Source: a virus. From it: DNA of 64,000 bases. The position numbers and the translations under genes were made by a program. The notes below the pieces were generated by a model, which was not told the DNA's origin, did no database searches, and saw only the letters and a program-made list of their open reading frames with translations. The stretch is taken from IMG/VR virus record IMGVR_UViG_3300045592_000030; one strand, given 5' to 3'. This document shows positions 1,083 through 58,500 of the stretch, in pieces. How positions within the stretch are numbered: the stretch's first letter is position 1; every line of letters starts with the position of its first letter.

Positions 1083-2483
1083 TTAAGCGCAAAATTTGTA
1101 CATCATCTCTGCAAAACGGTTTTCTTTGTGCTGGAGCCCGTTGTATAAGATGTTTATTTCATCGGTCTGCATACCTTTTAATACAGCCATCTGGAGCAAA
1201 TCGTCTTTGAAAACATCAAAAACTTTAGGATCCGACAATTTGCGCAACTTTGAGATTGCACGATAACCGAGTATCATGTCCACACCGGCGGCGGCTGCAC
1301 TTTGCCGCAAATCGTGAATGAAGTCTAAAACCGACTTATCACCGTTTGCGCAAACTTTCTCTATCTCTGAATCATAATCTATAAAGATAGGATCGAAGCG
1401 GTCAATCGTGGCTTTATCCATTTGATAACGGGTGATATACTGTAAATCTGCACCCTGGAGGGCCGTGTTACCCGTGCCAATGATACGAAAGTTTTCATTA
1501 GCTTTTATAGTTTCCCCGGCAAAGTTATAATAACCGTTTGCAAGTGCTTGATTCAAGTTAGTAAGTACTTCAGGAAGACACGCGTCCATTTCATCAAGAA
1601 GATAAAGCCCGCCAAACTTAAACGCTTTATAAAACGGCGTTTCCTGGTATTCACCGGCGGCGGATTTGAAGCCGGACAAAGTGAATGTTTCAGTTATGCA
1701 AGACTGCATGTAAAAATCAAGTCCCAGAGCGGCGGCGGCTTGCCGGGCAATTTCAGATTTGCCGGATCCGGCGGGGCCGTATAAATACGGGAATTCATTC
1801 ATAGAAATTGCTTGCACAATTTCGTTAAACTTTGCATGATAGTGCTCGCCGGTGGTGGTGTGTGTGGTACCGTCCACGCGCACAATTTTATATTCATGCA
1901 CCACCGGCGCGGCGTTCATGATAGGCGCGAGCATTTTCTTCACTTGTGCCATAACGTTTGCGGTAACTTGTGAAGTCACACCACCAAACAAACCGGCGAG
2001 GGCCGTTGTTGCCGCGTCCATAGTTGGCTCGGCGGGCTCGGCGGGCGTGCTTACTTCTTCATTCGTGGACGTTGCAGCCGGGGCGGGAGTGCTTACTTCT
2101 TCATTCGTGGACGTTGCAGCCGGGGCGGGAGTGTTTTCCTTTGCAGCGCGGCGGGCGGCGGCGTGCTCCTCCACCTTTGCGCGAATTTCAGCGTACCGAG
2201 GCTCGCCCTCAAATGTGATTTCAGTCACAAAGTTTTCAGTATCAAAAGCGCCGTTAATAAGACGTACAATAGTATCTTTGTCGTTTGTATCATCGTCCGT
2301 AGTACCAATCACGCGGCCAAATTTCCACCCGTGCATGTGGCCCTCGCCTGGATTGGTCCCGTCCCACTTTTTGCAGTGGGACATCAAATAGACGTTACCG
2401 GCGCAAAGTAAGATTGCGCTCTTTGTCCCGTTAACATAAGTGTTAACGATTGGATCACCTTTTTTAATTTGGTACTGTATCAT
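1083..2483 (-). CDS. AAA+ ATPase (MoxR/CobS-like AAA_5 core) with N-terminal extra domain
   Basis: Walker A GPAGSGKS and Walker B LYLLDEMD. Start moved to ATG 2483 (MIQYQIKK), because the longer track ORF reads through the promoter -7 box. Confidence 0.75.
   Translation of the reverse strand: MIQYQIKKGDPIVNTYVNGTKSAILLCAGNVYLMSHCKKWDGTNPGEGHMHGWKFGRVIGTTDDDTNDKDTIVRLINGAFDTENFVTEITFEGEPRYAEIRAKVEEHAAARRAAKENTPAPAATSTNEEVSTPAPAATSTNEEVSTPAEPAEPTMDAATTALAGLFGGVTSQVTANVMAQVKKMLAPIMNAAPVVHEYKIVRVDGTTHTTTGEHYHAKFNEIVQAISMNEFPYLYGPAGSGKSEIARQAAAALGLDFYMQSCITETFTLSGFKSAAGEYQETPFYKAFKFGGLYLLDEMDACLPEVLTNLNQALANGYYNFAGETIKANENFRIIGTGNTALQGADLQYITRYQMDKATIDRFDPIFIDYDSEIEKVCANGDKSVLDFIHDLRQSAAAAGVDMILGYRAISKLRKLSDPKVFDVFKDDLLQMAVLKGMQTDEINILYNGLQHKENRFAEMMYKFCA
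2047..2130. repeat. Perfect 42-bp tandem duplication inside the ATPase linker
   Basis: gtgcttacttcttcattcgtggacgttgcagccggggcggga occurs twice back to back and encodes TPAPAATSTNEEVS x2. Confidence 0.9.
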
Positions 2484-2530
2484 TGCTTTTTGTTTTGTGC
2501 CGTCCCAGGGGCGGCGGGTTAAACTTTTAT
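2484..2530 (-). promoter_or_regulatory. Conserved GC-rich 5' leader motif, copy 2
   Basis: Shares tgccgtcccagg, ggcgg and gttaaac blocks with 1033-1080 at the same distance from the ATG. Confidence 0.4.
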
Positions 2531-2550
2531 TTGTTTCTTGTTTACGTGTG

Positions 2551-2581
2551 CAAAGGTACAAAGAATATTTGAAACAACAAA
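2551..2581 (-). promoter_or_regulatory. Host-type promoter (TTTG-N19-TACCTTTG) for the ATPase operon
   Basis: Minus strand reads TTTG ttgtttcaaatattctttg TACCTTTG. This fits the Bacteroides -33 TTTG / -7 TAnnTTTG consensus with a 19-nt spacer. Confidence 0.55.
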
Positions 2582-2879: not shown

Positions 2880-3114
2880 GATAGTCAGCAACTTACGAAC
2901 TTTCGTCGGCTTAATGTTTCACGAAAAAGCAAGCGTGAAACCACAAAAATCAGCCTTTTTAAGCCAAATATATAGGGGCTGAAAAAGCGTTTAGAAAACG
3001 TCTTTTCAGCTTCAAGACAACCATTCTAAGCTACAATATCCATCCAAAAAAAGCGATTTCTTTCTTTTTCTCCACTATTAAGCCGCAAGTTTACCACTAT
3101 TCCACTGCAAACTT

Positions 3115-3156
3115 CCTATTTTGTGGAACATTGAGCATTGCAGTGGAATACATGAA
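3115..3156 (+). promoter_or_regulatory. Conserved upstream regulatory element, copy A
   Basis: cctattttgtggaacattgagcattgcagtggaatac matches the minus strand of 50975-51010 apart from two substitutions and a 2-nt indel. It has the same orientation relative to its downstream genes. Confidence 0.45.
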
Positions 3157-4916: not shown

Positions 4917-5102
4917 ATGAGTAAAGACGCAATCATTATAGCCATTGAGCTATTCCTTATCGTATGTGTGTATTTGTTTATCAGCCATACCACCATCAAT
5001 AAGACATTCCCGTACATTCATGTGCAATATCCGCTTCGCGGCCTTATTATCTTCATCGGCTGCACAATAGTTGGAATATTAGCCATGCACATCAAGCACT
5101 AA
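4917..5102 (+). CDS. Small membrane protein (two hydrophobic helices)
   Basis: ORF 4875..5102 with ATG at 4917 (MSKDAIIIAIELFLIV...). Confidence 0.45.
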   Translation: MSKDAIIIAIELFLIVCVYLFISHTTINKTFPYIHVQYPLRGLIIFIGCTIVGILAMHIKH

Positions 5103-5103
5103 G

Positions 5104-5160
5104 CACAACGTCCGCACCATCAAAATTGACGATGCGGACGTTGTGTTTGTGTTGTTGTTT
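5104..5160 (+). terminator. Intrinsic terminator at the convergence point of plus and minus operons
   Basis: 13-bp stem cacaacgtccgca/tgcggacgttgtg followed by tttgtgttgttgttt. Confidence 0.7.
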
Positions 5161-6755: not shown

Positions 6756-7976
6756 TTATGCCCAATTATTATCGAACTCACTTATCATAAGCCATCCAGC
6801 CCCATGCTTATCTGATGATATCAAAGGATTTGTAAACTCTCTGATATTTATAAATGTTTGTACTTTACCACCAGATAGTAACCAATCTGGATTTCCATTA
6901 ATGTTTAGAAAAACGTTATTGTATGTATCATGTGCATTTACAACTGTTACTTTTTTGCCAGTCCCTCCTGCAAGCATTTCGTAATGATAGTAAGTACTAT
7001 TGTCAAATATTAATAAATCAACTGGGAAACCATATATATCTGCTAATGTTGCATTACCATAAGCCGAAGAATATCCAGTGCTAGAGTCTGGATATAGGGG
7101 AACGTAGTATCCACCAACACCATTCGATTGAAGATCAAATCTTACATAAGAGTTAGTATCTCCATTAACGTAATAGTCTATAACAGTGTCATGTACTCTA
7201 GCCATATTTAGACAAGTAGTTCCGAACGACCCTCTACATCTAATATTACCTGAATAAAATCTTAATGTACGGCTGTTTTTTGTTCCTTGCTGGCTAATAT
7301 CTTCATTCTCGAACGTCATTCCATGTGTTCCAAATACTAATCTACCACTAGAGCCAACTCCTTGTAGATAATTAAATGTCCCGCTCACACCATTTAAAGT
7401 TCCACTAATACGACAGTCCCTTACTTCACTGTCTCCAGTTATCAGCATCTTAGTAGCTACAACTGACCCATCTTCAGAAACACGATATGGTGCTGTAGCA
7501 GGGTCACTTCCTCCTATCCAAAGTCTTACGTCATTGCTTTCTGTACTAAAACCACTTAAACCACCTACAATATTAAAATCACTATCCATTAGTAATAGTT
7601 GATTACCTTGCAAAAACTTAATCTTTGCATTCTTAGCGATAATGAGAGATGTAAATATTGCTGTGACATTAGCAGAGAATTGTTCCCAGTATGTATTTCC
7701 TCCAGTAGTTCCCGGTTTATTGCTAGCATTAGCAGTATGATCTTGCAGACATAAATAAGCATCCCATCCTGTAGTAGCGTTACTGTTAGCTATAAGAGCT
7801 ACATCAATATATCTTATTCCGTCTTGCTTTACGTTAGATTGATTAAGATACTGTGTACCTTCTACCCATTCACTGTCACGTATTACACAACCTTGTATTC
7901 CTTGGTCTCCCTTCTCACCAGTCGCACCCTTCCTCGCCCGCTTGACGGTGGTTGAACCCATTGCTATTAATGACAT
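6756..7976 (-). CDS. Tail fibre / receptor-binding protein candidate (AT-rich cassette)
   Basis: The N-terminal motif MS-I--GS-TVKR-R-G is shared with 13090..14259. Short collagen-like GATGEKGDQGIQG. Last structural gene of the operon. Confidence 0.55.
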   Translation of the reverse strand: MSLIAMGSTTVKRARKGATGEKGDQGIQGCVIRDSEWVEGTQYLNQSNVKQDGIRYIDVALIANSNATTGWDAYLCLQDHTANASNKPGTTGGNTYWEQFSANVTAIFTSLIIAKNAKIKFLQGNQLLLMDSDFNIVGGLSGFSTESNDVRLWIGGSDPATAPYRVSEDGSVVATKMLITGDSEVRDCRISGTLNGVSGTFNYLQGVGSSGRLVFGTHGMTFENEDISQQGTKNSRTLRFYSGNIRCRGSFGTTCLNMARVHDTVIDYYVNGDTNSYVRFDLQSNGVGGYYVPLYPDSSTGYSSAYGNATLADIYGFPVDLLIFDNSTYYHYEMLAGGTGKKVTVVNAHDTYNNVFLNINGNPDWLLSGGKVQTFINIREFTNPLISSDKHGAGWLMISEFDNNWA

Positions 7977-8971: not shown

Positions 8972-10897
8972 TTAATATATCAAATTCTTAAACTCATCCA
9001 TCGACGCAAGACTCTGTACGGCATCCTGCTCGCTGACATGATATTCTTTGTAAAATATCTTGTTATTTTCGGAGCATTTATGCAAACGTTGATGTATCGA
9101 TGCCTTACCTTCATTCACAAGCATATAAAACTCAACGATTTCGAGGCTGCTTTCCGGTGAATGACAAAGTACAGGCTCCTGCTTACCCGGCAGAATAGCA
9201 AGATATAGCAACTTCACGTAATATGATTTTGGTACTTGCTTCAATGCTTTATCAACCGAAATATGCTTTTCCTCTGCAAGTTTCGCGGCATTCTCCTTCA
9301 TCCGCAAGTCGGACACAATTAGTTTGTATTCCACGGGGATGACAACCGTTCCATCAGGCAAATCCGCATGTTTTTTCTTGCAGCCCTTCTGAATAGTTGA
9401 AGAAACTCCTTTCTTATTGGTGAAAATCATACGATGCTCGATTAAATATTGTAGATGTTTGCTATCAGTCTTATCAAGAATACCTTTATAGCCGGCATAG
9501 TGCTGTTTGCCTTTGCGAAAAGCGCGAATGCTCCTGCGCCGTATCTCTGCACGAGGCTTCACAAAGCTGCGGAAGAAATCATATTTACAGAAGCGAAAGC
9601 CATCATCGACTTTCTTTATCTGATAATCATTCTTCACAGTTAATGAATAGCGTCCTTCGTAGAACGACATTTGAAACGACATAGCTTCGCGCACCACCTG
9701 CTTATCATAACTGCCTATCAACCGATTGTCGCCAAAGCAACAGAAAAAGACGTGATAACGCTGCAAGATAATACTATCGCATTCTGCTATCGTTATCATC
9801 GCCATCAGTTGCGAGAGGCAACCACCAATCGGAAGTTTTACGGTTTTAGAAAAAGCCGTTACAAACAGCCAGCGAAGATAAGGACAAACGATCGTTTGAA
9901 ACATCACCGAGAAAACAACCTGTATGGAGGTATTTTCATAGAAATGCTTAATATCCGTCAATCCTACGTATGCTCCTGGATGTGTATCAACCCAATGGCG
10001 TATGATATTAATCATACAATACTTCGGATCGTTGGATAACATCGAGCGTCCCTTGATGCCGCTGTACACATTCCTCACGAGCTTATTGCGGAACTTCTGC
10101 TCCACGACAATCAGAAGAATATTCTGTACGATGCGGTCAAAGACATCCGAAATATCCGCGTTTCTGTCCTTATCACCCTTACCACGCTTATGAATAATAC
10201 GTCGCTCATTCGGTAATGGCTCATAGGTCTGAGTAGCTAACAGATACCAGATATAAGCGCAAACTTCTAAACGATGAACTTCGTACCAATTCTTGACAGG
10301 CTTAGAGCAATGTGTGCGTTCCATCGTGCGGTCAAATCCAGCGAGGATTATCTCACGTGATAGAACAAATCTCCGCATATTTTTCAGTTTCCTTTTCGAG
10401 TTGGCTGTCTTGAGTTCTTTAAAAATCGGGTCGTCTTGCCGGTAGCCCGTTGCGTTGCTTTCCGCTTTCACCTCGTCGCTACCCCAAAAAGGAAGTTCTG
10501 AGCCGTAATCACACCGCCCATACGCACCAGTGGCCGCATGGTCTTCCGTTATCTTTAGGCTTGCTGCCTGCGATGCGAGGGATTCCCTGTTTATGATATT
10601 CACTACCGCTTTGACAGCCGAAGCCCCGACGTAATTGTCATTGCCATTACCTGCGTGGTTGTTACCATTCAAAGTCCGAACCGAAGGATTCGGATTCCAA
10701 GTGTTGAGGTTACAACCGACGACGGAGCCGTCATCCTCGCCTTCGCTCTTCGATAAGGTTTCATCGGTATCGTTGTTCGTAAGGAAGGGATTGCCTTGCG
10801 ATACCGCGTCTGCCTTACCGTCAACCCACAGTTGATAGTACGAGAGTATTTCTTTAGCTCTCGGCACACAATCGTAGATATGTTTTTTCTTACTCAT
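8972..10897 (-). CDS. DGR reverse transcriptase with a long N-terminal extension that contains the TR
   Basis: RT motifs: RIIHKRGKGDKDRNADISDVFDRIVQ, VYSGIKGRS, LTDIKHFYE, LPIGGCLSQ (DGR-type SQ motif), and FGDN in place of YxDD. The first ATG after the TR is at 10378. Confidence 0.8.
   Translation of the reverse strand: MSKKKHIYDCVPRAKEILSYYQLWVDGKADAVSQGNPFLTNNDTDETLSKSEGEDDGSVVGCNLNTWNPNPSVRTLNGNNHAGNGNDNYVGASAVKAVVNIINRESLASQAASLKITEDHAATGAYGRCDYGSELPFWGSDEVKAESNATGYRQDDPIFKELKTANSKRKLKNMRRFVLSREIILAGFDRTMERTHCSKPVKNWYEVHRLEVCAYIWYLLATQTYEPLPNERRIIHKRGKGDKDRNADISDVFDRIVQNILLIVVEQKFRNKLVRNVYSGIKGRSMLSNDPKYCMINIIRHWVDTHPGAYVGLTDIKHFYENTSIQVVFSVMFQTIVCPYLRWLFVTAFSKTVKLPIGGCLSQLMAMITIAECDSIILQRYHVFFCCFGDNRLIGSYDKQVVREAMSFQMSFYEGRYSLTVKNDYQIKKVDDGFRFCKYDFFRSFVKPRAEIRRRSIRAFRKGKQHYAGYKGILDKTDSKHLQYLIEHRMIFTNKKGVSSTIQKGCKKKHADLPDGTVVIPVEYKLIVSDLRMKENAAKLAEEKHISVDKALKQVPKSYYVKLLYLAILPGKQEPVLCHSPESSLEIVEFYMLVNEGKASIHQRLHKCSENNKIFYKEYHVSEQDAVQSLASMDEFKNLIY
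10610..10731 (-). repeat. DGR template repeat (TR)
   Basis: 122 nt aligning without gaps to 11096-11217 (offset 486). Contains 30 coding-strand adenines and 10 AAY codons. Confidence 0.9.
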
Positions 10898-11086
10898 TTG
10901 TCCCTTTAAAGAAACTGAACTGCTTTCGCACGTATGGCTACGCGTCGCGCCGCTAAGCCGCGGCGCAACACTGCCGCCATCTTTCAGCTATTGGCCATTT
11001 GCCTTATGCTTGTGGCCGTAATCTCGTTAAGCCACTGCTCACATTTACAATTCGTATATTATTAATGTTAATTGTTCTCTTTTTAA

Positions 11087-13057
11087 TTATGCTATCAAGA
11101 CAGCCGAAGCCCCGACGTAAAAGTCAAAGCCATAACCTGCGTGGTTGTGACCATCCAAAGTCCGAACCGAAGGATCCGGACTCCAAGTGTTGAGGAAACA
11201 ACCGACGACGGAGCCGTGTACCTGTCGTTTACCGACACCGGCGTTATTGGTCGCATACGTCCATAGATAACAATTCTCGTAGGTTCGGGCACCGCCGCCA
11301 ACGGTCTTTGCACAGAAGAGCGAAAGGGCATAGTTGCTTGTCGCAACCCAAGCCTCATTAGCCAGGACCGATGGATAAGCATAACGCTGCGACAAGCCTT
11401 TTTCGATGTCTGCCTCGCCATCTATATCAGCCTCGTAACCGAAAGACTTTCGAGCGGGAAGATCATCAATACTGGCCGTACAGCGAAATTCCATTGACAA
11501 GTTACTGCTTGCATCTTGCTTGATAACATAGAAAGCACCGTCCGTCTGTTCAAAGCAACCATACGCATACGGCAGTATCTTGCCACGGTAAACGGGCATA
11601 GAACGTTTCAAGATAGCTTTTTTGCCAGTCAGTGAAGTGCCGTCAGAAGTCAGCGTCATACCGTCGGCAAACTCCATCAGCGTATAACTGTTCACGACAG
11701 CCGTCATCACACCATCTGCCATACCTTCACAATTAGGCACATCGCGCACAATGAAGTAATGCTTTAGAGCAGTCATACCCGTACCAGTGCTCACATCAAT
11801 ACTGCCATCAGTAGAGCATTTCATCTTACCGTCATCGCCATAATAGAAAATATGGCTCTTGCTGCCTATCATAGAGATAAGTCCGGCAGCGGAAATAGCA
11901 TCGAGAACACGTTGTGGCTCCAGCATCTCGACAATGCCATAATTACTATTGCCAGCGATACCTTGTACAAGTCCGTATTTAGTGCCGCTATTGGTAATAG
12001 CCGAATCGCCCCATGTATTATAATAACGTGCATCTGTGTTCGACACGATTACCTTCCATCCGCTGTTACCGCTGACAGCATCATCATTAAAAGTTGTAGC
12101 ATTCACACTGTCAAGTGGTGTAAGTCCTGCACCGAAACAGTTCAATGCCGTTTCGTTAAGCGTGCCGATTTCTGCATAGAGCAAAGCACACCATGCCTCG
12201 TAGAACTCATAATACTCACCTAAATAAGGTGTGCGAGTCAACGGATCGGTATTCTTTGCCTGTGCACGCTGTATGCTCTGTACGCAAGACGTGAACTGCG
12301 TAGGATAGCCGCCACCGCTCTTTTTATAAGAAGCCTTAAAGATACCATTAGGCGCGTCATAGGTTCCTGCAACAGCGGTGTTGTAGATACAATGCTGCTG
12401 TGTGTTAGTATCGCCGCTGAGCTTGCCATATACCTCGCCCATCGCACAAATACCATGTTTCGGCAACAGTTTTGCCATCTTGCCGTTCCAATAAGCCGGT
12501 ACAAGGCCAATACCCATGACATTAGTCTCTTTATCATCAACTGTCTTAGTATCTTTGAGAAGATACGGCTTGGTGTCCCAACAAAGATACAGATCCCCGT
12601 CGCTTCCATCTATTGCCACCGTGTCGCCATTTGTGGCCTTAGTCAGGCAAGTACCTTCAAGCGTATGCTGCTTCGCTCCGCCTTTTACAGTGCACAAGTG
12701 CAGATGCGATCCGATTTCATGTATAAGCGATTTGCTGCCATAAGTTGTAGCCGCATCCGGAGACTGCGCACCATTCTGACGTGCGAAACCGGCAAACTGA
12801 TTTTTCTCGGAAAATGCCGCCATCAACGCGGCAAACTGCGAAACGGTATCAGATGCTTTCTGTGCGGCTGATGTCGCCGACTCCGCCGCCGTGCGAGCCT
12901 CCGCAAGATCTCCTGCTGTATTGTCGCCCACTTTTTCAGTGAGCGTTTTAATTGTTACTCTGCGCACATGCCCATCTCTCTCGGCCACCACCGCGTCGGT
13001 GTCCTGTGGGTCGGTGATAAGGGTTGCGGTACCCAAGTCTTTAATTTTGCTTTCCAT
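11087..13057 (-). CDS. DGR target: tail fibre-like receptor-binding protein
   Basis: 656 aa in the fibre module, with the VR at its extreme C-terminus (...GSVVGCFLNTWSPDPSVRTLDGHNHAGYGFDFYVGASAVLIA). Confidence 0.8.
   Translation of the reverse strand: MESKIKDLGTATLITDPQDTDAVVAERDGHVRRVTIKTLTEKVGDNTAGDLAEARTAAESATSAAQKASDTVSQFAALMAAFSEKNQFAGFARQNGAQSPDAATTYGSKSLIHEIGSHLHLCTVKGGAKQHTLEGTCLTKATNGDTVAIDGSDGDLYLCWDTKPYLLKDTKTVDDKETNVMGIGLVPAYWNGKMAKLLPKHGICAMGEVYGKLSGDTNTQQHCIYNTAVAGTYDAPNGIFKASYKKSGGGYPTQFTSCVQSIQRAQAKNTDPLTRTPYLGEYYEFYEAWCALLYAEIGTLNETALNCFGAGLTPLDSVNATTFNDDAVSGNSGWKVIVSNTDARYYNTWGDSAITNSGTKYGLVQGIAGNSNYGIVEMLEPQRVLDAISAAGLISMIGSKSHIFYYGDDGKMKCSTDGSIDVSTGTGMTALKHYFIVRDVPNCEGMADGVMTAVVNSYTLMEFADGMTLTSDGTSLTGKKAILKRSMPVYRGKILPYAYGCFEQTDGAFYVIKQDASSNLSMEFRCTASIDDLPARKSFGYEADIDGEADIEKGLSQRYAYPSVLANEAWVATSNYALSLFCAKTVGGGARTYENCYLWTYATNNAGVGKRQVHGSVVGCFLNTWSPDPSVRTLDGHNHAGYGFDFYVGASAVLIA
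11096..11217 (-). repeat. DGR variable repeat (VR)
   Basis: 14 mismatches to the TR, all at TR adenines. Covers the last 41 codons of ORF 11087..13057. GC-rich 3' end cgtcggggcttcggctgtc is identical in both copies. Confidence 0.9.
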
Positions 13058-13089: not shown

Positions 13090-14259
13090 TTAAGATGCTG
13101 CGGAAGTGGAATCCAACTCGAACTGTACGGTACCGGCCACATCAATATCGCACATTACCGTTGTCTTGTTCCCGGCATTATCCGTCACATCGTAATCGGT
13201 ATCGCTGGTACTGATGGTAACATCCTTCGTCTTTACCGTGCGCACATCAACGAAGTTAGCTCCGTTGTCCTGCAAGCGATAAATATGGTGTTCCCATGTA
13301 TCATTTACGATTTTGATGAGTTTTCCAGTGCTCATCTGTACTACAGCCGGAGTCAGTCCTACGCTTTCGCCATCATCGACCTGCTGCTTGGTCGCATCAG
13401 TGTAACTATATACAATCTTGAATGGGTCTGTTGTATCAAGCACATCAAAACCAACGGTATAAACGTACTTTGTAACATCAGTAACACCTTCCGGATAGAA
13501 ATAGACAACAAATGTAGTCTGTCCGTCCACATCATCCACGCCGATAGCGTTATCCTTCTTTTCCTGCAAGGCAGATGCCGCTGTTACGCTCAGCTTCTTT
13601 GTATTCTTAAGCAAGTCATAGTCAGCCTTGCAGATAAGATAGCCGAACTTCACAGCATCTCCGCCATAGAGCAAAGAAAACGTTAGACCGATATGGTCGG
13701 ATGTTGTGTTGAGTGAATCCGTAGAAACGCCATCGCTTTCAGCTACGAGATTACCCGTCAATCCGACGATGCCGACATACGAACCTGCGCTCAGTGGCGA
13801 GATGATTACGTCGATGCTTCCGCTTACAGGCTGCTCCTGTGCACCGGCGCAACGAGCATCACAAGAGAATGTCAGCGTGTCGTTGCTGTCATTGTCCTTG
13901 CTCGCAAGGTTGCCGATGATAACCAGCGTATAGCTGCCATCGGTGAGCATCTTGAACTTGTCTGTATAACCCGTTGTCGTACACGCGCCATTAGCATCAA
14001 AAGCCAATTCGATATTAAGGTATTTCCATTTTGCAGTGCCATCCACGATGGTAACGGGCTGTTTGTTCGTTGCCTCCAGTACCGGCTTAACCTGCGGACG
14101 ATTGGAATCCTCAATGATTTTACTCCAGTCTGGCGTTACCGCTCCTGCCGAGTTCACACCCTGGTAGAGGGCCACGCCAGTAGGCATCTCGAAGTGCATT
14201 GCTATGGTATATCCACGGCGCAAACGCTTCACAGTGATAGAACCTGTTGTTATTGACAT
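13090..14259 (-). CDS. Virion structural protein (fibre/baseplate-associated)
   Basis: 389 aa, beta-rich. N-terminus MSITTGSITVKRLRRG is paralogous to that of 6756..7976. Confidence 0.6.
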   Translation of the reverse strand: MSITTGSITVKRLRRGYTIAMHFEMPTGVALYQGVNSAGAVTPDWSKIIEDSNRPQVKPVLEATNKQPVTIVDGTAKWKYLNIELAFDANGACTTTGYTDKFKMLTDGSYTLVIIGNLASKDNDSNDTLTFSCDARCAGAQEQPVSGSIDVIISPLSAGSYVGIVGLTGNLVAESDGVSTDSLNTTSDHIGLTFSLLYGGDAVKFGYLICKADYDLLKNTKKLSVTAASALQEKKDNAIGVDDVDGQTTFVVYFYPEGVTDVTKYVYTVGFDVLDTTDPFKIVYSYTDATKQQVDDGESVGLTPAVVQMSTGKLIKIVNDTWEHHIYRLQDNGANFVDVRTVKTKDVTISTSDTDYDVTDNAGNKTTVMCDIDVAGTVQFELDSTSAAS

Positions 14260-34438: not shown

Positions 34439-36130
34439 TTACTTCTTGCCGTTGTCGAACATCTGTGCGGCATAAGGCTTCGACGGGTCGTAAACCTGCT
34501 GCACAGCGGCAATGCGAACCTGCTTTGCACCTGCGCCATTATCGACGGGAGCGTTTCCGGCTTCGACATTCTTACCGGCACTCTGGCCCATTTCCTTCAT
34601 CTGCTCGTCGCGGTCTTTCAGGTTCTGCTCCAGTTCGGCGATGCGAGCGGTCTTTGCGTCGATGTCTTTCTGTATCTCGGCCATCTTCGCGTTGAGCTCA
34701 GAAACCTGTTTATCGCTTGCGGCCTTTGCGTCGGCAGTAGCCTTCTCGTTTGCAGCTTTCTCATCTGCAAGAGCTTTGTCGCTTGCGGCTTTTGCGTCGG
34801 CAGTGGCTTTCTCGTTTGCAGACTTCAACTCGGCAATCTGAGCCTCGTAGTTAGCCTTTGCGTCGGCCAGCTTCTTCTCGTAGTCCTCCTGGGCTTTCTG
34901 AGCGGCTGCGGCATTGTCTGCTTTCTGTTTCTCACTTTCCGCCTTGATGTTGCCAATAGCGGACTCAAGCGTATCAAGCTGTGCGATGTTGAGGAACGAA
35001 CCGTTCTCAATCTCTTTCTCGCTACCAGTCTTTACGGCCAACTGCTCCACGTTGAGCAATGCGGCCACATTCTGATATTTCTTATCCATGTTGCTGTTAT
35101 TTTGTTGATTAGAATGAGCATTGATTTGTACTGTTGCAGGGGCTTGTGCCTGTGCTGCAATCTGCGTTGGTGCGGACATAGCCACATGCGCTGTTGCGGA
35201 AGAAGCGGTAGTGCGTGCGGATGCGGCATCCTGTGCGGCTGGAATACCGGCAGCTTTTGCCAAAGCTATCACACGGTCGAAAGCCTGGCCATAATCACAC
35301 TGGCCATTCGTCCAGATGCCTTTGGTCTTTTCAGCGTCGTACAAGTTGCCATGTATCATTTCATCCTTGCTCTTCGGGAAACTTTTCATAATGGCCGCGC
35401 GGAACTCCACGCCCGACTGAGCCAAATCATCGAGGATGATCTTATCGCCATCACTACCATCAGCCTTGCGGTACCATTCATTCTTATTGTAGCTATCCGG
35501 ATCGTAAAGCTCGCGATAGGTTTCACCGGTGTAAAGCTTATCCATATCACCCATCTTGTAGAACATGGCCATCACACCAATAGAGCCAAACTGGTCTTTC
35601 GGGTGCATGTACCATATTTCATCGCACATGCTGGCTAAGTACATAGCAGCCGACGCACACATACCATCGACCCACATCACTACCGGCTGCTTCTTGCTAT
35701 GAGCATAATCGATAGCTTGCTGGTAATCGTTGTGCGTCCATGCGGCTCCGCCTGGAGAGTTCACAACAAAGAGATGACCGACGCACTTAGGGTTGTCGGC
35801 ATTGCTCATAATCATATCGCGGTGGTCGGCACTTCCATAGGAACACAAGTCTCCGGCACGTGTCATTGGACCGTCGATAGTCATCACGTTTATGAATGGA
35901 TCGTTGATATTGTCTTGATAAGAAGAAATGCTCAACCCCGTTTCCGTAGAGATGTTCACATCCTGAATGACCTCCATTGTCGCGGCGTTGACCAACTGTC
36001 CAATCGTCTTTTCCATCGAAATGGGATAATGGCCGTTGAGATTTTGCTCCACCACATTGCGATAAGCTGCGGCGGCACTGGGCTCAATGGCAAATATCTT
36101 TGCGGTAAGTAATTCGTGTAATCCTCGCAT
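34439..36130 (-). CDS. Head maturation protease (ClpP/S49-like) fused to a coiled-coil scaffold domain
   Basis: VVNSPGG and MCASAAMY motifs. The Ala/Lys/Glu-rich C-terminal half has a repeated NEKATADAKAASDK. Start at ATG 36130. Confidence 0.7.
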   Translation of the reverse strand: MRGLHELLTAKIFAIEPSAAAAYRNVVEQNLNGHYPISMEKTIGQLVNAATMEVIQDVNISTETGLSISSYQDNINDPFINVMTIDGPMTRAGDLCSYGSADHRDMIMSNADNPKCVGHLFVVNSPGGAAWTHNDYQQAIDYAHSKKQPVVMWVDGMCASAAMYLASMCDEIWYMHPKDQFGSIGVMAMFYKMGDMDKLYTGETYRELYDPDSYNKNEWYRKADGSDGDKIILDDLAQSGVEFRAAIMKSFPKSKDEMIHGNLYDAEKTKGIWTNGQCDYGQAFDRVIALAKAAGIPAAQDAASARTTASSATAHVAMSAPTQIAAQAQAPATVQINAHSNQQNNSNMDKKYQNVAALLNVEQLAVKTGSEKEIENGSFLNIAQLDTLESAIGNIKAESEKQKADNAAAAQKAQEDYEKKLADAKANYEAQIAELKSANEKATADAKAASDKALADEKAANEKATADAKAASDKQVSELNAKMAEIQKDIDAKTARIAELEQNLKDRDEQMKEMGQSAGKNVEAGNAPVDNGAGAKQVRIAAVQQVYDPSKPYAAQMFDNGKK

Positions 36131-36454
36131 AATAGATATATTGTTTATTTCGATTTTGATTTCTACACCAAAAGTAAACAATACATTTTTCGTCAGGACG
36201 CAAAAATTAGGGGGAAAACCTTTGTTTTCGGGAAAGAGCAAAAAAAAAGTGAAAACAAAAAATCCGCATATCCTCACGGACAGCGGATCAACCATTGAAT
36301 TTATGAAATACAAAAAAATCAGCAAATGAAAGCGCATCCCTGCGCCATCATTTGCAATGCCTATAGATATGAATGAAACAATCTATTTTCTAACATACAA
36401 AACATTTCCGACATTTTTAACCTTTTCAATATACAATCTTACTATTCAATCTTA

Positions 36455-51124: not shown

Positions 51125-51727
51125 ATGAAGAGTGCTAAAGTGTTAAAGATATTGCATGTATCGCGTCAAACGCTCGTGCAGTACGTGAAGAAGAAAGAGA
51201 TAAGGGTCGTATCATTGCCAAACGGCACGTACGACTACAACGATGATGATGTATATCGCAAGGCTGGGCTTGCTTCAGAAAGAATGAACATTGTCTATTC
51301 ACGTGTATCTACGGCAAAACAAAAAAACGACCTTGATAATCAAGAAAAGACTTTGATTGACTATTGTAACAAGAATGGTGTTAAGGTAAGCAAGTCTTAT
51401 AAGGATATTGCAAGCGGAATGAATTTTGACCGTAAGCAGTTCAAGCAACTACTTGGCGAGATACTGAATTTCAAAGTTGGCAGGTTATACATTACGTACA
51501 AAGATAGGCTTTCTCGCATCTCGTTCGATATGTTCAAGCGACTGTTCAGTGAATTTGGATGCGAGATAATAGCCATCAATGATACGGACGATAAGGCAAA
51601 CGAGACAGAGATATTCGAAGAAATCATTTCAATGCTTCATTGCTTCGCTATGCGGATGTATTCACGAAGGAGAAAAAGGAAACTCGAAATAATGGAAGAG
51701 GATTTGAAAAATGAGATTAGTCTATAA
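51125..51727 (+). CDS. tnpA: IS607-type serine recombinase transposase (MerR-like HTH plus resolvase domain)
   Basis: N-terminal HTH KVLKILHVSRQTLVQYVKK and catalytic YSRVSTAKQ. ATG at 51125. Confidence 0.75.
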   Translation: MKSAKVLKILHVSRQTLVQYVKKKEIRVVSLPNGTYDYNDDDVYRKAGLASERMNIVYSRVSTAKQKNDLDNQEKTLIDYCNKNGVKVSKSYKDIASGMNFDRKQFKQLLGEILNFKVGRLYITYKDRLSRISFDMFKRLFSEFGCEIIAINDTDDKANETEIFEEIISMLHCFAMRMYSRRRKRKLEIMEEDLKNEISL

Positions 51728-52952
51728 GTTCTACATACGGCACGCAGAAGATCTTGACAGGTTGTTTAGTATTTCAAACAATCTGTACAATCAGGCGTTG
51801 TATCTGTTCCGTCAGCAGCTGAATGCCGACGGTACGTGGCTGTGGTATAACGACATGGATAAACTCATGAAAAAGACCACTAACCTCGAAGGCGAATGTA
51901 ACTACAAGTTGCTGAAATCTCAATGCTCTCAGCAGATACTCCGTGTTCTTGATAAGAACATCAAGGCTTATTGCAAGAGTATCAAGGATTGGAAGAAGCA
52001 CCCCGAGAAATACAATGGAATGCCTAAGATGCCTTGTTACCGAAAACGAGGCGGTATGTTTAACCTGTATTATACCAATCAGTCATGCAGTATTAAAGAT
52101 GGAAGAATCCGACTTGCTAAGGATTTATTTGTCTCTATTCCTCAATGGGAAAAATATGGCGAAAGTCTAAAGTCGATACACCAGGTACGTTTAATACCAA
52201 ACTTCCGTAACATCAAGGTTGAAATTGTCTATGATAAGGAGACAGAGCAAGCTGATGTGGATAAGGCAAAATACGCTGCTATTGACCTTGGACTCGATAA
52301 TCTCGCCACGATGGTTACTTCTGAAGGCTGCACGATTTATAGCGGCAAATATCTCAAATCTTACAATAATCACTTTAACAAGACACTTTCTCACTTGCAG
52401 TCTATCAAGAGTCTGCAAGGCATAAAGCGAACGACAAGAAGAATCACTCGTATTTACGACAAACGAGACCGCTATTTTGAGGACGCATTCCAGAAGGTTA
52501 GCCGTCAGATTGTCGATACACTTGTACGGAACCGTATAGGAACGTTAGTTGTAGGCTACAATGCCGGATGGAAACAAAAATCCGACATGGGCAAAAAGAA
52601 CAATCAAAAGTTTGTTCAGATGCCTTTTGCGAGACTGGCAGACTATCTCCGCTATAAGTGCGAGATGATTGGAATTAAGTTCATTATGCACGAGGAAAGT
52701 TATACAAGCAAGTGCGATGCTCTTGCTCTTGAACCTATTGAGAAGCATGAAACATATCTTGGGCGCAGGGTTAAGCGCGGATTATTCCGCTCCTCGACCG
52801 GGAAGATGATTAATGCTGACCAAAACGGAGCCTTTAACATTCTTAGAAAAGTAGTCGGCGATTCTGAGTTTTCTCGGATAGTCGGTAGCGGGCACTCGTT
52901 ATGTCCGATACGATACCGCAATCCGTTTCAAACGGTTGCAGGAAGTATGTAA
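51711..52952 (+). CDS. tnpB: TnpB (OrfB_IS605-type RuvC nuclease), lacking the usual CxxC zinc-finger pairs
   Basis: RuvC motifs AIDLGLDN, HEESYTSK and NADQNGAFNI. Only one Cys lies between RuvC-II and RuvC-III. Overlaps tnpA by 17 nt. Confidence 0.75.
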   Translation: MRLVYKFYIRHAEDLDRLFSISNNLYNQALYLFRQQLNADGTWLWYNDMDKLMKKTTNLEGECNYKLLKSQCSQQILRVLDKNIKAYCKSIKDWKKHPEKYNGMPKMPCYRKRGGMFNLYYTNQSCSIKDGRIRLAKDLFVSIPQWEKYGESLKSIHQVRLIPNFRNIKVEIVYDKETEQADVDKAKYAAIDLGLDNLATMVTSEGCTIYSGKYLKSYNNHFNKTLSHLQSIKSLQGIKRTTRRITRIYDKRDRYFEDAFQKVSRQIVDTLVRNRIGTLVVGYNAGWKQKSDMGKKNNQKFVQMPFARLADYLRYKCEMIGIKFIMHEESYTSKCDALALEPIEKHETYLGRRVKRGLFRSSTGKMINADQNGAFNILRKVVGDSEFSRIVGSGHSLCPIRYRNPFQTVAGSM

Positions 52953-55555: not shown

Positions 55556-58500
55556 TTACTTATGTTTATTCATAAATTGCTGGGCTTTGTTCAATGCGTC
55601 CAGTGCTCCACCGCGTCCGTATGGATCCATACGAGCTTCAAAGGGCTGATTAAGACGATCAACGAGCGACGTGATAGCCACCGACAGCGCACCCATAATG
55701 GCTTTCGTGTCGTTATCCACACCCGTAGCACCACTCGCCGCGGCCACCTGCTGCACGTTACCGGCATCGTAGGTGCGGTAAGGCATCGAACTGCGGTTCT
55801 TATCGTACATGATGATTTCCCTCAGTAAGTCGGGTCGGTTCATCATCATGGCTGCTGTGGTCTCACGGCCTATCACCATTTCCGGACCGCGCTCGGCAAC
55901 CAATGACGGTTGGCCGTTAATCATCGTAGCAATCGGTGAGCGCACAATACCCGTAACGGCTTGTGATATGCTTGTAGCAGCATAGACGCGGCCATCATCA
56001 CCGACAACGGGATAGCTCTGACCGTCCAAAAGTCCACGGTATTTCTGCACGTTACCTTCATCATAGGTGAGCATTCCCGTCTTGAGCTTCGTATTCGTAG
56101 ATGCCGAAGAAGTGTTGCTCTTGCCTAACTTGGAGAGGAAGGCAGAAAGCAAACCATTCAACAATGCTGTGATAACAGCCACCAAAGGAATACCCCACCA
56201 ACCTAATTTGCCAATAATATTAGCGGCACCGCTGACAATACCTCCCTCAGTATCAGTTGTGGCTTTCTTCACAGTGCTATGCGTGTTCGATGCGTCCTGA
56301 TCTTGCTGAGCCTTGTCAAGAGCAGCGTTCATCGTCGTGGTGATAGTCTGCTGACCGGCTGACTTGGCTGTTTCAGCCGCAAGAATATTCTTATTGCTCT
56401 CCTTGTGTTCCTGAACGCGTATCTTACTGCTTTCCTTTTCTGACTTGCTGATGGTTTTGGAGGAATTCTTATTCTCCTTTGCCATCTTGTCATTGTGCTT
56501 TTGGTTCTCTTTCTCAATGGCTTTATCATCGGCCACTTTTTGTTTCACTTTCGAAGATAACCCGCCCAAAGCATCACCAGCCACACTACTAATGGCACCA
56601 CCGACAACACTTGTGGCATCGGTATTGCCCTGTCCAATACTCTGTGCTGCACCCGTGGCCGCGTTCTGCGCTGCCGTTACGTCAGTAGCACCAGCCGAGG
56701 AAGTTCCTGTCATTGTTGCCGCACCATTGCCCTTACCCATATCCGTAGCTCCAGCCGCACCGCTTGCTGCACCGGTTGTCTCCGTGGGTGCGGGAGTTGA
56801 CAAGTTGCTGTTACCAATAATAATATTCGCGTTCTCAATGGTTCCGGTCGGTATGCCGTTGTCATTGAAAAGCTCAGTTTCAAAACCGCTCTTCTTGCCT
56901 TTCTTCGCGGCTTTACGGATAAGCTCTTCCTTGACCTTGCGCATCATGAGCTCGTTGATGATCTTCACCGTCGATTGCGCATAGGCACGCACCATGTCGG
57001 CCAATGCTTCCTTGACGGCATCACGGCCAGCCTTGGCACTATCCGACATCATCGCGAAAGCCTTACCCATTGCCGTGCCCAACTGCTCAATAGGATCCGT
57101 CCACTGCTTCAACTCACTCATACGGTCGGTAACGCGTGTGGCTACGGTCTTTTCAAGTTCATTCTGCGCCTTATCTATCTTGTCAAGGTAATCGTTTAAT
57201 ACCTTCGGGTCGGTAGTCTTTAGTTTGGCCATCTGGTATTGCGCCTGTGCCGCCCATAGATTATTGCGCTTTTCGGCCATTTCCACATCATCGCCGCGGA
57301 CGGTCTTGGAAAAACCGAATGGTTGCCAGTCGTTCTGCCGACGACCATAAAGACTTTCCTTATCTGACATTCGCGACAACGCCCTGTCAGCATTGCTGTA
57401 CTGACGATACTCATTACTACGCTGCCACATCGTATCAATGATTTTCTTGAGTTCATCAGAACGTTTCTTCTGCTCTTCCCAAAAATCATCACCATACTTC
57501 ATAAGAAGATTATAGAGATAATAAATATTATCTCTCAATTCTCCTTTGTTAGCGTCGAGTATCTTCTTCAAGTCGTCAAGGTCGGGAATGCCATTACCGT
57601 CAAGTTTGACATCATATAAACCTTTTATATGATTACCCTTGTCATCCTCGTAGCCGTTCATCATCTTACCGGTGGTTTCCCAGTTGTTCGCCCATTTCAC
57701 CATTTTAGGCGTACCATCCGGATTAAGAACACCGCTAAAATTAGAAACGAGTCCTGTTATCCATTTCCAAAGTCCTTTATCTGTGCTTATATCGCTCTCA
57801 TAAGGATGATAACCATTACGCGGGAACTGCATAAGCATCTCATAAAACGGCGACATAAAGCGTTTGGGAGCCGTGCCATTAACAATTACCTCGTCAAGTG
57901 TATTACCGCTTCCCTTTGCCCCCTCTGTATTCTTTAACGGATTTGCTCCACCGGCATAACGACGGACATCGACAGGATTTAAGCCCACATCGATAGCTTG
58001 CTGAGTATATTTCTTGATAACATTACCCAGTATATCAAACGACTCTACAACCTTTTCGGTTGCATCTGCCTGTTTTTCGTGAATATCAGCATTAGACTTT
58101 AGATTTTCCGTTCCATTCTTATATATCTCATCAAGAACAGCACCGGCGTTTATGCCATAAACAGCATCGGAACCGTTGAACTTAGCGAGATTTCTATAAG
58201 CCTTGTCAAGGTCAACATTCTGCATACGAGCCATGAGAGCCTTACTTGCGGTTCCGCCATTTTCCGTATCAAGTTGTAAATAGCCAGTAGAAAGCTCCTG
58301 AAGCATCTTAGAAAAGTCTAATTCAGGATGCTCGTTTTGGTGTCCTGACAAGCGGAAACGTGCTGCCGCAAGGAAACGGTTCTCGTAATCTTTCAACTGT
58401 GCTGTCAGTGCTACACCAACATCAGGCGTTAGGTCTTTTCCTATACGGTCTTTCAATCCTGTCAACTGTAAATTGAAATACGCCTCAATGTCAGATATAA

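Follow-up and report, generated by a model that had tools for sequence, protein, structure and literature searches.

The 64,000-nucleotide window (the whole stretch of DNA analysed, IMG/VR record IMGVR_UViG_3300045592_000030) comes from a ~84-kb tailed phage, probably of Bacteroidales, and very probably carries a functional, recently active diversity-generating retroelement (DGR) that rewrites the tip of a receptor-binding fibre via a template repeat (TR) copied by the adjacent reverse transcriptase (RT). A DGR had been proposed in a preliminary description, and the adenine pattern of the TR and variable repeat (VR), the C-terminal position of the VR in its target, the resemblance of the RT to that of Bordetella phage BPP-1 (bRT) and the turnover of VRs among related phages all support it. 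The DGR lineage is apparently undescribed, combining an FGDN motif C, no nearby Avd gene and a TR within the RT's own frame, and it is atypical in its RT open reading frame (ORF) of 600–640 aa, compared with 300–500 aa in canonical DGR RTs. The main features are as follows.

11087..13057, minus strand: target gene (ORF, 656 aa), receptor-binding/tail-fibre-like, with a diversified C-terminus
11099..11217, minus strand: VR, 119-nt core encoding target residues 615–653; 11 mismatches, all at TR adenines
10613..10731, minus strand: TR, 119-nt core with 27 adenines and 10 AAY codons, in the RT frame (ORF residues ~56–95)
8972..10897, minus strand: RT ORF, 641 aa; N-terminal extension 1–154 (TR and structured RNA), core 155–490, C-terminal alpha/beta domain 500–641

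TR/VR repeat pair and its natural variation

Segments 10610–10731 (TR side) and 11096–11217 (VR side) align without gaps, each position lying 486 nt from its counterpart. A scripted realignment and a repeat search agree on this and reproduce the earlier hand count of 14 mismatches in 122 nt, all at plus-strand T, that is, A on the coding minus strand, with none off a TR adenine. Changes thus affect 14 of 30 adenines and 0 of 92 other bases (A>T 9, A>G 4, A>C 1). On recount, eight of the ten TR AAY (Asn) codons are altered in the VR, to exactly the residues first listed (F, S, D, D, H, Y, F and F). The terminal AAA to TTG change (10610–10612 versus 11096–11098), which had been taken for mutagenesis and included in the VR, is instead the homology boundary just beyond the VR core, because the Leu encoded there is constant in 15 natural target variants in which each of the 15 internal adenine codons is variable. 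Setting these three mismatches aside as the end of homology leaves 11 adenine substitutions in a defensible 119-nt core (10613–10731 versus 11099–11217; 11 of 27 adenines changed). The probability of all mismatches falling on a single base class by chance, corrected for four bases and two directions, is ~1e-7 for this core and ~1e-9 for the 122-nt version. No second VR was found anywhere in the 64-kb window, where the next-best matches agree at 41–42 of 92 non-A positions.

Phage genomes often carry direct repeats close to fibre genes, and such a pair could in principle be a segmental duplication diverging through ordinary mutation or fibre-gene recombination, with no retroelement involved. 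This origin is vanishingly improbable and already refuted by the mismatch statistics: mismatches are confined to one base, one strand and one copy, both here and in 54 related loci (671 adenine versus 15 non-adenine mismatches), the changed copy is always that in the target gene, and a DGR-type RT is always adjacent.

Population variation was assessed with natural protein variants in place of reads. Fifteen near-identical target proteins carry 14 distinct VR peptides and share 97.9% identity outside the VR and 73.7% within it; outside the internal adenine codons only three singleton changes occur. The expectation that VR polymorphism is confined to TR adenines thus holds, as the variants differ at adenine codons and almost nowhere else. 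In one related locus (L026) the TR is identical and the RT 100% identical to those here, yet the two VRs differ at 12 positions, every one an adenine site, against a background divergence of ~0.8%. The DGR is recently active, as near-identical phages carry differing VRs with changes almost only in adenine codons.

Target protein

ORF 11087..13057 carries the VR at its 3′ end, with 6 nt separating the VR from the stop codon. Its 656-aa product has >150 homologues and no match in Pfam, PHROG or NCBIfam. Its AlphaFold2 (AF2) model (pLDDT 87.5) matches, in BFVD, a ‘receptor binding complex’ and crAss-like tail fibre and tail-collar fibre proteins (E 1e-28 to 1e-9), consistent with the original assignment of the VR to the C-terminus of a fibre-like protein. 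The suggested C-type lectin or other DGR scaffold was not recovered, since predicted-fold comparison gave only weak, non-significant matches to DGR variable proteins.

Reverse transcriptase

9428..10435, minus strand: RT core (NTE, fingers, palm, thumb), residues 155–490; pLDDT mostly >90, pN/pS 0.14–0.17
9809..9829, minus strand: motif 4/B, IGGCLSQ, of the DGR type [I/L/V]GxxxSQ, aligning with IGSLTSQ of bRT
9725..9736, minus strand: motif 5/C, FGDN, replacing YxDD, at the turn between strands E384–388 and E391–396 of the AF2 model
8975..9400, minus strand: C-terminal alpha/beta domain, residues 500–641; pLDDT ~90, pN/pS 0.16

RT homologues of 590–670 aa cover at least 90% of the ORF, down to 41% identity. 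The presence near the VR of an RT with a DGR-type LPIGGxxSQ motif is borne out: LPIGGCLSQ occupies residues 355–363, with G358, S362 and Q363 invariant across 88 homologues, and bRT is the best PDB match both to the family profile (8ub7, E 1e-6) and to the AF2 model (8ubd_A and 8ub7_A, TM 0.84–0.85, rmsd 2.8–2.9 Å). FGDN falls on YxDD in three independent alignments (bRT YMDD, group II intron RT YADD and phage Versailles RT YMDD), is invariant in 18 RT clusters at 50% identity, and lies within a stretch (F388, G389, D390, N391 and R392) that is invariant in the 88 aligned homologues. The C-terminal domain, which has no Pfam or PDB sequence match, is modelled as a mixed alpha/beta fold rather than an Avd-like four-helix bundle. 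‘Classic’ does not describe this RT, given FGDN in place of YxDD, the lack of a nearby Avd gene and an ORF of 640 aa.

An Asp-to-Asn change in motif C is expected to impair a canonical RT. The locus could be a decayed DGR, its RT killed by FGDN and its TR/VR differences a fossil of past activity; of the two catalytic aspartates of YxDD the second is here an Asn, the RT scores under the curated threshold for Pfam RVT_1, and both aspartates are 100% conserved in the DiGReF survey of 155 DGRs (mean RT length 378 aa; PMC3521204). Decay is nonetheless very unlikely. FGDN is retained in homologues with identities as low as 41%, and a pN/pS of 0.14–0.17 shows strong purifying selection on the RT; every FGDN lineage has a clean adenine-only TR/VR pair, and phages with identical TR and RT differ in their VRs only at adenine sites. 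To judge by the mutational footprint alone, an RT with this Asp-Asn motif C would be enzymatically active.

A Pfam search of eight ORFs around the DGR (5.2–14.5 kb) gave no Avd-like match. With the search covering these neighbouring ORFs, the element appears to work without Avd, and the conserved RT C-terminal domain may stand in for functions that Avd has elsewhere.

TR within the RT reading frame

The TR sits not in an intergenic spacer but inside the RT ORF, together with structured flanking RNA that is also in frame, in every lineage examined. Across 25 loci representing about eight divergent lineages, the region from 150 nt before the TR to the RT core has no stop codon in frame 0, compared with 168 and 236 in the other two frames. 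The TR-to-core spacer is 65–89 codons long, with length differences that are always multiples of three, and none of its start codons is conserved between TR and core in the 25 loci. In 24 of 25 loci an in-frame ATG in A-rich context precedes the TR by 55–67 codons (by 41 in L005), and the TR-encoded peptide is conserved in all RT homologues, with invariant Asn codons. Residues 98–127 lack a codon-position signature, and the pre-TR and spacer parts have a pN/pS of 0.62 with a pS of only 0.15, so constraint there falls chiefly on the nucleotide (RNA) sequence. The open frame through the TR could be maintained for reasons other than a functional peptide.

These values also bear on an ordinary DGR layout, in which the TR and spacer form an untranslated leader, the RT starts at a lineage-specific internal codon near residue 100–170, and the long ORF is a by-product of RNA-level conservation and of the TR mirroring coding sequence. 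The missing coding signature and the strongly lowered pS fit this layout, as do the disorder predicted by AF2 for residues 1–154 (pLDDT ~30) and the internal ATG, GTG or TTG present in each locus; the literature treats the TR as untranslated (PMC5758913), and RT ORFs overlapping the TR are already catalogued as ‘group 3’ without functional meaning (PMC3521204). It sits poorly with the stop-codon counts over divergent lineages, the multiple-of-three indels and the ATG kept in A-rich context ~60 codons 5′ of the TR. Moreover, the only post-TR start codon of several lineages is six codons beyond the TR, so most of the spacer would be translated regardless, and invariant R169, K170, L171 and F177, with which the N-terminal extension of the RT begins, precede the sole internal Met that is semi-conserved. 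We regard the ordinary layout as possible but doubtful. Under the preferred reading, the TR and its flanks being in frame within a 600–640-aa RT ORF, the template RNA would be the 5′ portion of the RT's own mRNA, with the ORF beginning ~55–65 codons upstream of the TR.

RNA structures around VR and TR

10942..10971, minus strand: GC-rich hairpin (12-bp stem, 6-nt loop GGCUUA), ~127 nt downstream of the VR and 5′ of the RT start codon; fold −25.4 kcal/mol, z = −3.1
10838..10867, minus strand: hairpin upstream of the TR (CGAGAG...CUCUCG, then UAC) within the 5′ part of the RT ORF, from folding
10735..10746, minus strand: 5′ strand of a TR-bracketing duplex, GCGAAGGCGAGG, directly upstream of the TR; partner 10570–10580
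10570..10580, minus strand: 3′ strand of the duplex, CCUCGCAUCGC, 33 nt past the TR end
10557..10569, minus strand: stem-loop GGC AGCAA GCC right after the duplex, followed by the A-rich run UAAAGAUAA
10518..10541, minus strand: second spacer stem-loop, CCAUGCGGCC ACU GGUGCGUAUGG; 10 pairs, 9 with compensatory changes, 95–98% paired

Hairpin 10942–10971 is a candidate for either a GC-rich inverted repeat of the kind found after the IMH in some DGRs or a terminator/insulator; most related loci have counterparts 76–124 nt past the VR, with other stem sequences and a ..YUUAG.. loop. The stems of hairpin 10838–10867 covary over 25 lineage representatives (7–13 sequences with double changes per pair). 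The TR-bracketing duplex shows compensatory changes in 8 of 10 pairs, with 96.8% of cells paired versus 28–57% when the partner is slid, and 0 of 500 shuffles attain the observed value on four of five measures. In stem-loop 10557–10569, three of four pairs have 9–13 compensatory changes and pairing is 100%; over all spacer helices, compensatory changes occur in 16 of 22 pairs, with 97.5% paired versus ~30% when slid. The sequence of a candidate TR 3′-end pairing (10614–10618 with 10404–10408) never varies. In BPP-1, the cPRT Stop consists of a duplex, a stem-loop and adenosines (10.1101/2023.10.23.563531); here too a covarying duplex brackets the TR and is followed by a stem-loop and A-rich run, the same layout.

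Comparison with known DGRs

The prototype BPP-1 DGR (mtd-avd-TR-brt) shares with this locus the single-strand order of target with 3′ VR, TR and RT, adenine-only, AAY-rich mutagenesis of a phage receptor-binding fibre, the RT core fold and the IGxxxSQ motif. It differs in having avd nearby, in an RNA that binds Avd directly after the TR, where no conserved stem-loop is found here, in a TR and spacer placed between avd and brt, and in a 328-aa bRT with YMDD rather than a 641-aa RT ORF with FGDN and an additional C-terminal domain of 140 aa. Neither a detectable sequence match nor a significant fold match links the target to BPP-1 Mtd.

An Avd-independent mechanism has already been inferred for Avd-less DGRs (Architecture A; ‘Lineage 3’, Wu et al. 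2018; PMC5758913), which, by published description, likewise have a TR-RT core and no accessory gene. RTs in that survey are 300–500 aa, some DGR RTs having C-terminal extensions of up to ~150 aa, and the TR is treated as untranslated (PMC5758913), whereas the present family has RTs of 600–640 aa with the TR in the RT ORF. DiGReF ‘group 3’ (Schillinger et al. 2012), a cassette-drawing category only, also has the TR overlapping the annotated 5′ end of the RT ORF (PMC3521204), but here the overlap is complete (TR, ~70 spacer codons and ~55 codons upstream), family-wide and combined with FGDN. Bacteroides and crAss-like gut-phage DGRs (phage Versailles, ON453897; crAssphage LMMB; epsilon crAss-like phages) are alike in their gut-phage context and tail or tail-collar fibre target, and the predicted fold of the target here matches crAss-like fibre proteins. 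Among 50,697 GenBank phages there is no close relative of the RT or target; the nearest RT, from phage Versailles (395 aa, YMDD), is only 24–26% identical over the core to the 641-aa FGDN enzyme.

Proposed mechanism

The adjacent RT would copy RNA spanning the TR (10613–10731, minus strand) and misincorporate nucleotides opposite adenines, cDNA synthesis being cis-primed from downstream RNA if the analogy with BPP-1 holds. The mutagenised cDNA would then replace the VR (11099–11217), so that as many as 15 codons for the C-terminal tip of the receptor-binding fibre protein could change. With up to 15 rewritable codons, ~1e14–1e16 peptides would be possible.

Template and variable repeats

Realignment by script of 10570-10780 against the sequence 486 nt downstream in window coordinates yielded a template repeat (TR, 10613-10731, minus strand) and a variable repeat (VR, 11099-11217, minus strand) that differ at 11 positions and are otherwise identical; a repeat search returned the same 119-nt pair at 91% identity. 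The preliminary description had extended this core by 3 bases (TR 10610-10731, VR 11096-11217; TTT in the TR versus CAA in the VR on the plus strand), and its count of 14 mismatches, all on TR adenines, was reproduced, with 14/30 adenines changed versus 0/92 other bases. The mismatches fall on plus-strand T in the TR, that is, on adenine of the minus strand, which codes all genes at the locus, and the TR-to-VR spectrum over the 14 is A>T 9, A>G 4 and A>C 1. After correction for four bases and two directions, the probability that mismatches would be confined to a single base class by chance is ~1e-7 for the core and ~1e-9 for the extended pair. As originally noted, eight of the ten AAY codons in the TR are altered in the VR (to F, S, D, D, H, Y, F and F), and the VR lies at the 3' end of a 656-aa target ORF (11087..13057, minus strand), whose stop codon follows 6 nt past the VR end. 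The leucine at the terminal AAA-to-TTG change is invariant in 15/15 target variants, so this change marks the end of homology and not, as had been supposed, mutagenesis.

In diversity-generating retroelements (DGRs), the GC-rich 3' ends of the repeats (IMH and IMH*) mark which copy is the target and which the template, and in some DGRs the IMH is followed by a GC-rich inverted repeat. Here the GC-rich 3' ends (GUCGGGGCUUCGGCUGUC) are the same in TR and VR, and divergence begins right after them. No second VR was found elsewhere in the 64-kb window, and an inverted-repeat match between 10616-10635 and 13805-13824 was dismissed as chance-level.

The target protein and its genomic context

A recognised mark of DGRs is the display of the variable residues on a C-type-lectin (or Ig-like) fold. 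The AlphaFold2 (AF2) model of the target protein (58 homologues; pLDDT 87.5, pTM 0.86) had no significant fold match in the PDB; its weak top matches, TaqVP (E 0.12), Mtd (0.9) and a Nanoarchaeota CLec (3.4), are DGR variable proteins, a suggestive but non-significant result. In BFVD, the model matched 'receptor binding complex', crAss-like tail fibre and tail-collar fibre proteins (E 1e-28 to 1e-9). The target protein had no match in Pfam, PHROG or NCBIfam, and sequence profiles of its C terminus and of the C-terminal domain of the reverse transcriptase (RT) returned only noise against the PDB. The theoretical repertoire is ~1e16 peptides, or ~6e14 without the boundary codon.

The target gene closes a run of large structural ORFs. 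Next downstream are the RT gene and two small ORFs, after which come a second fibre-like ORF, a holin and a DUF5675 protein. The second fibre-like ORF (6756-7976, minus strand, 406 aa) has a short collagen-like Gly-X-Y stretch near its N terminus, matches the C termini of very long PHROG proteins and carries no VR. Farther afield, a 1,877-aa ORF (55556-61189, minus strand), with tape-measure-protein PHROG matches almost all in its first ~700 residues and the remainder unassigned, lies far from the fibre module, beyond the head protease gene (34439-36337). A transposase-like ORF (51711-52952, plus strand; PHROG 506, E 1e-43), in a genome otherwise almost entirely minus-strand, may represent an insertion sequence or point to a transposable or temperate lifestyle. 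An AAA-type ATPase of 492 aa (1083-2561, minus strand; PHROG 249, 'porphyrin biosynthesis', CobS/MoxR-like, E 2e-51) is an auxiliary gene. Several contigs encoding the same target protein (among P0388-P0399) are 83.4-84.3 kb long, which suggests a complete phage genome of ~84 kb, with the window representing about three quarters of it; P0388 has a VR exactly like that of the window.

VR turnover among close relatives

The target cluster (P0121, 59 members) provided 15 full-length 656-aa variants, including that of the window. These variants are 97.9% identical outside the VR versus 73.7% inside and comprise 14 different VR peptides. Each of the 15 internal TR codons with adenine at position 1 or 2 is variable among them, and the other VR codons show three singleton changes only. 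One related locus, L026, has an RT 100% identical to that of the window and an identical TR, with a VR that differs at 12 sites, 12/12 of them at TR adenines, on a background divergence of ~0.8% over 6 kb. The adenine-restricted VR variation anticipated in population reads was seen on assembled variants, namely the 15 proteins and L026, and this variation shows that the DGR is currently active.

A DGR-type reverse transcriptase with an FGDN motif C

The 641-aa RT (8972..10897, minus strand) matches Pfam RVT_1 weakly (E 2e-4; 21.4 bits versus a gathering threshold of 29.6) and PHROG 1423 'reverse transcriptase' well (1e-28). Among all PDB sequences, the best match to a profile of 21 homologues was the RT (bRT) of the prototype DGR, that of Bordetella phage BPP-1 (8ub7). 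The core (residues 155-490) is confidently modelled by AF2 (88 homologues; pLDDT mostly >90), and its best fold matches are the BPP-1 DGR ribonucleoprotein structures 8ubd and 8ub7 (TM 0.84-0.85 on target, rmsd 2.8-2.9 A), ahead of group II intron, G2L4, DRT9 and retron RTs. The DGR-type motif previously noticed in the RT adjoining the TR was also recovered: motif 4 is IGGCLSQ (residues 357-363), fitting [I/L/V]GxxxSQ. Group II introns and retrons have as hallmarks intron RNA domains or msr/msd, a maturase or X domain, and GxxxSP in motif 4. An RT of either kind was rejected on the basis of the SQ ending of motif 4 and the higher rank of the bRT structures in the fold search, and a group II intron RT also by its TIGR04416 score (39.7 versus a cutoff of 300). 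An Rfam scan of the whole window and of the TR region gave no match.

The aspartate of motif A, D315, is invariant. Motif C is FGDN, which aligns to YMDD of bRT, YADD of group II RT and YMDD of the phage Versailles RT, and sits at the turn of a beta hairpin (384-396) in the model. GDN is known from the palm of negative-strand RNA virus polymerases. F388, G389, D390, N391 and R392 are invariant in the 88 homologues, down to 41% identity. The RT thus departs from the catalytic YxDD used to recognise DGR RTs, both aspartates of which were 100% conserved in a survey of 155 DGRs (PMC3521204).

Homologues of the RT fall into 317 clusters (90% identity), nearly all of them 590-670 aa long and with at least 90% query coverage. 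An exhaustive HMM search of 1.8 billion representatives recovered ~18 FGDN-bearing clusters at 50% identity, with a TR-like N terminus in every full-length one. The nearest outgroups, P0252 (YGDD) and P0258 (FCDD), both have a TR-like N terminus, and more distant still are canonical RTs of 300-450 aa with YCDD, YADD or YMDD. In a sister branch (P0242, P0245, P0247-P0251 and P0254), motif 4 is GxxxSP (LSP, not LSQ), and both FGDN (P0254 ends before the motif) and a TR-like Asn-rich N-terminal segment are kept; the SQ rule of DGR finders would miss these members. We note that xxDN replaces xxDD in motif C of several shorter prokaryotic RTs (P0271, P0274, P0275, P0280, P0289 and P0356), in which motif 4 ends in SH, SP or SA. 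Given these sporadic occurrences in other RT groups, Asp-Asn is not unique to the FGDN family, and the novelty is an Asp-Asn motif C in a DGR with a footprint of activity.

Among GenBank phages, the nearest RT is that of Bacteroides phage Versailles (395 aa, 26% identity). No close relative of the RT or target was found among 50,697 GenBank phages, where a nucleotide search and tblastn with the target protein also returned nothing. Close relatives occur in 2 of 185,579 species-representative genomes, both Bacteroidales metagenome-assembled genomes (Prevotella sp. and Bacteroidaceae). Most RT homologues have no precomputed Pfam domain, and this scarcity, together with the sub-threshold RVT_1 score, means that Pfam-gated RT and DGR surveys may skip the family; motif-based DGR finders may under-call it in gut viromes owing to the same low score and the lack of YxDD.

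Adenine mutagenesis across the FGDN family

Scans of IMG/VR and of metagenomes provided 24 and 50 related loci, respectively. The TR motif is in frame within the RT ORF in 60 loci, and the VR is present on the fetched DNA in 54 of these 60. TR/VR mismatches in the 54 loci total 671 at adenine versus 15 at other bases, so that in each lineage the FGDN enzyme goes together with clean adenine mutagenesis. As a rule, VR and TR share a strand, the VR starting 400-525 nt upstream of the TR start, and the target stop codon lies 7-17 nt past the VR. The spacing of the cassette is not fixed across the family, as the VR of L065 (922-1031) lies 2.1 kb upstream of its TR (3023-3132) instead of ~0.5 kb. 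On the 279-kb IMG/VR contig L022, the VR occurs twice, at 5008-5110 and 7503-7605, at a distance of 2.5 kb; each copy has 20 adenine substitutions relative to the TR, and these equal counts suggest either duplication of the target gene or recent homogenisation of two targets.

The template repeat lies within the RT reading frame

The RT ORF starts at 10897, and its residues 56-95 are encoded by the TR. The canonical RT N-terminal extension begins near K168, in a stretch (KRKLKN) similar by eye to the GKRHRN with which bRT opens. The 25 loci first analysed all have an open frame that runs from 51-119 codons upstream of the TR through to the RT. Over the interval from 150 nt before the TR to the RT core, these loci have no stop in frame 0, versus 168 and 236 in the other frames in 4,066 codons. 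TR-to-core spacers are 65, 66, 68, 71, 72, 73, 80 or 89 codons long, with every difference a whole number of codons. The 25 loci have no conserved start codon between the TR and the RT core, and an in-frame ATG, often ATGAAGAAA in an A-rich context, occurs 55-67 codons upstream of the TR in 24/25 (41 codons in L005). The frame is kept open across the TR region, which, we infer, is most likely translated as a disordered leader. The alternative, that the frame is maintained to encode a functional N-terminal peptide, is opposed by a pN/pS of 0.62 with a pS of just 0.15 in the pre-TR and spacer parts (RT: pN/pS 0.14-0.17, pS ~0.5), by fewer third-position than first- or second-position changes in residues 98-127, and by the predicted disorder of residues 1-154 in AF2. 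We read the region 5' of the RT core as constrained mainly as RNA.

The TR is treated as untranslated in the literature (PMC5758913), and 'TR overlaps annotated RT ORF' appears solely as a drawing category ('group 3', PMC3521204). Beyond this category, no literature description was found of FGDN or GDN in DGR RTs or of a translated TR.

Covarying RNA structures around the template repeat

RNAalifold was applied to 25 non-redundant representatives of the lineage, followed by pair counts with controls. The duplex and two stem-loops from this analysis are listed here with two further hairpins:

10735-10746 with 10570-10580: TR-bracketing duplex, between the 12 nt directly upstream of the TR and a segment 33 nt downstream of it
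10557-10569: 4-bp stem-loop directly past the duplex, with 9-13 compensatory changes per pair, then UAAAGAUAA
10518-10541: 10-bp stem-loop in the spacer RNA
10838-10867: covarying hairpin upstream of the TR
10942-10971: conserved GC hairpin past the target stop codon and ahead of the RT start, located 76-127 nt beyond the VR across loci

Compensatory changes occur in 8/10 pairs of the TR-bracketing duplex, 96.8% of cells are paired versus 28-57% with the partner slid, and on four of five measures 0/500 shuffles came up to the real duplex. A 3-bp long-range helix was also predicted. In the spacer helices overall, 16/22 pairs are compensatory and 97.5% are paired, versus ~30% when slid. A cPRT Stop is predicted in 207/278 DGRs of the type with the accessory protein Avd. 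In BPP-1, it consists of a duplex of upstream and downstream RNA, an adjacent stem-loop and adenosines, and it positions the template:primer duplex and ends cDNA synthesis (bioRxiv 10.1101/2023.10.23.563531). The window TR has this same layout of duplex, stem-loop and UAAAGAUAA. Unlike BPP-1, in which an Avd-binding stem-loop directly follows the TR, the corresponding segment here is short and variable, consistent with an absence of Avd.

For the GC hairpin at 10942-10971, three roles are conceivable: IMH-associated inverted repeat, terminator, or 5' end of the DGR RNA. The TR 3' end (GCUGU) could pair with ACAGC at 10404-10408, but this tentative candidate for the template:primer duplex was not retained, because the helix never varies and overlaps conserved codons. 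Visual inspection of the purine-rich sequence immediately 5' of the duplex strand revealed no priming nucleotide. Scans of 10300-11300 for sigma-70 promoters and intrinsic terminators were uninformative; the sigma-70 consensus is also inappropriate for Bacteroidales.

No Avd gene nearby and an additional RT domain

None of the eight DGR-flanking ORFs between 5.2 and 14.5 kb has an Avd-like Pfam match, and the 367-nt gap between VR and TR leaves no room for a gene. Avd occurs in ~74% of DGRs and is not universal. Avd-less elements made up 29% of a 372-element survey, including one whole lineage (PMC5758913), so the lack of Avd alone is not new. Residues 500-641 of the RT form a confidently folded (AF2), mixed alpha/beta domain under purifying selection, with no sequence match in Pfam or the PDB; we speculate that this domain substitutes for Avd.

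Discussion

The original interpretation of this locus stands: with its adenine-only TR/VR pair, DGR-type RT and VR turnover, the element is a genuine, active DGR. DGRs in phage fibre genes are ordinary in themselves; this one stands out by its lineage, which combines the invariant FGDN, a 600-640-aa ORF holding the TR and its covarying cis-RNA in frame, a lack of Avd in the vicinity and an additional C-terminal domain. Despite these departures, the BPP-1-like RNA architecture bracketing the TR is kept. No description of this combination was found in the searchable literature, and none of the Quimbyvirus, Hankyphage-type, tentaclin or crAss-like DGRs as published fits the present layout, although the family may already sit unremarked within large DGR catalogues.

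On a joint reading, to which we give somewhat less than even credence, the locus would represent a separate DGR lineage that abounds in gut phages and whose RT mRNA doubles as the DGR RNA. The TR and the priming and stop structures would be translated as the disordered N terminus of the RT, and because they are part of the RT mRNA, each new enzyme would capture its own message in cis. Avd would be dispensable, its bracing role taken by the extra C-terminal domain, and adenine-mutagenic reverse transcription would be carried out by a GDN rather than a DD palm.

To our knowledge, no natural system outside adaptive immunity other than DGRs hypermutates proteins in a targeted way, and the mechanism of DGRs is known entirely from one RT-Avd-RNA complex, that of BPP-1. 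They are also under development as directed-evolution tools. A widespread, active lineage that apparently does without Avd is a natural experiment for telling which mechanistic components are essential, and the FGDN lineage alters a catalytic aspartate thought invariant in DGR RTs. The fusion of the template RNA into the RT frame may give a simpler, single-gene diversifier.
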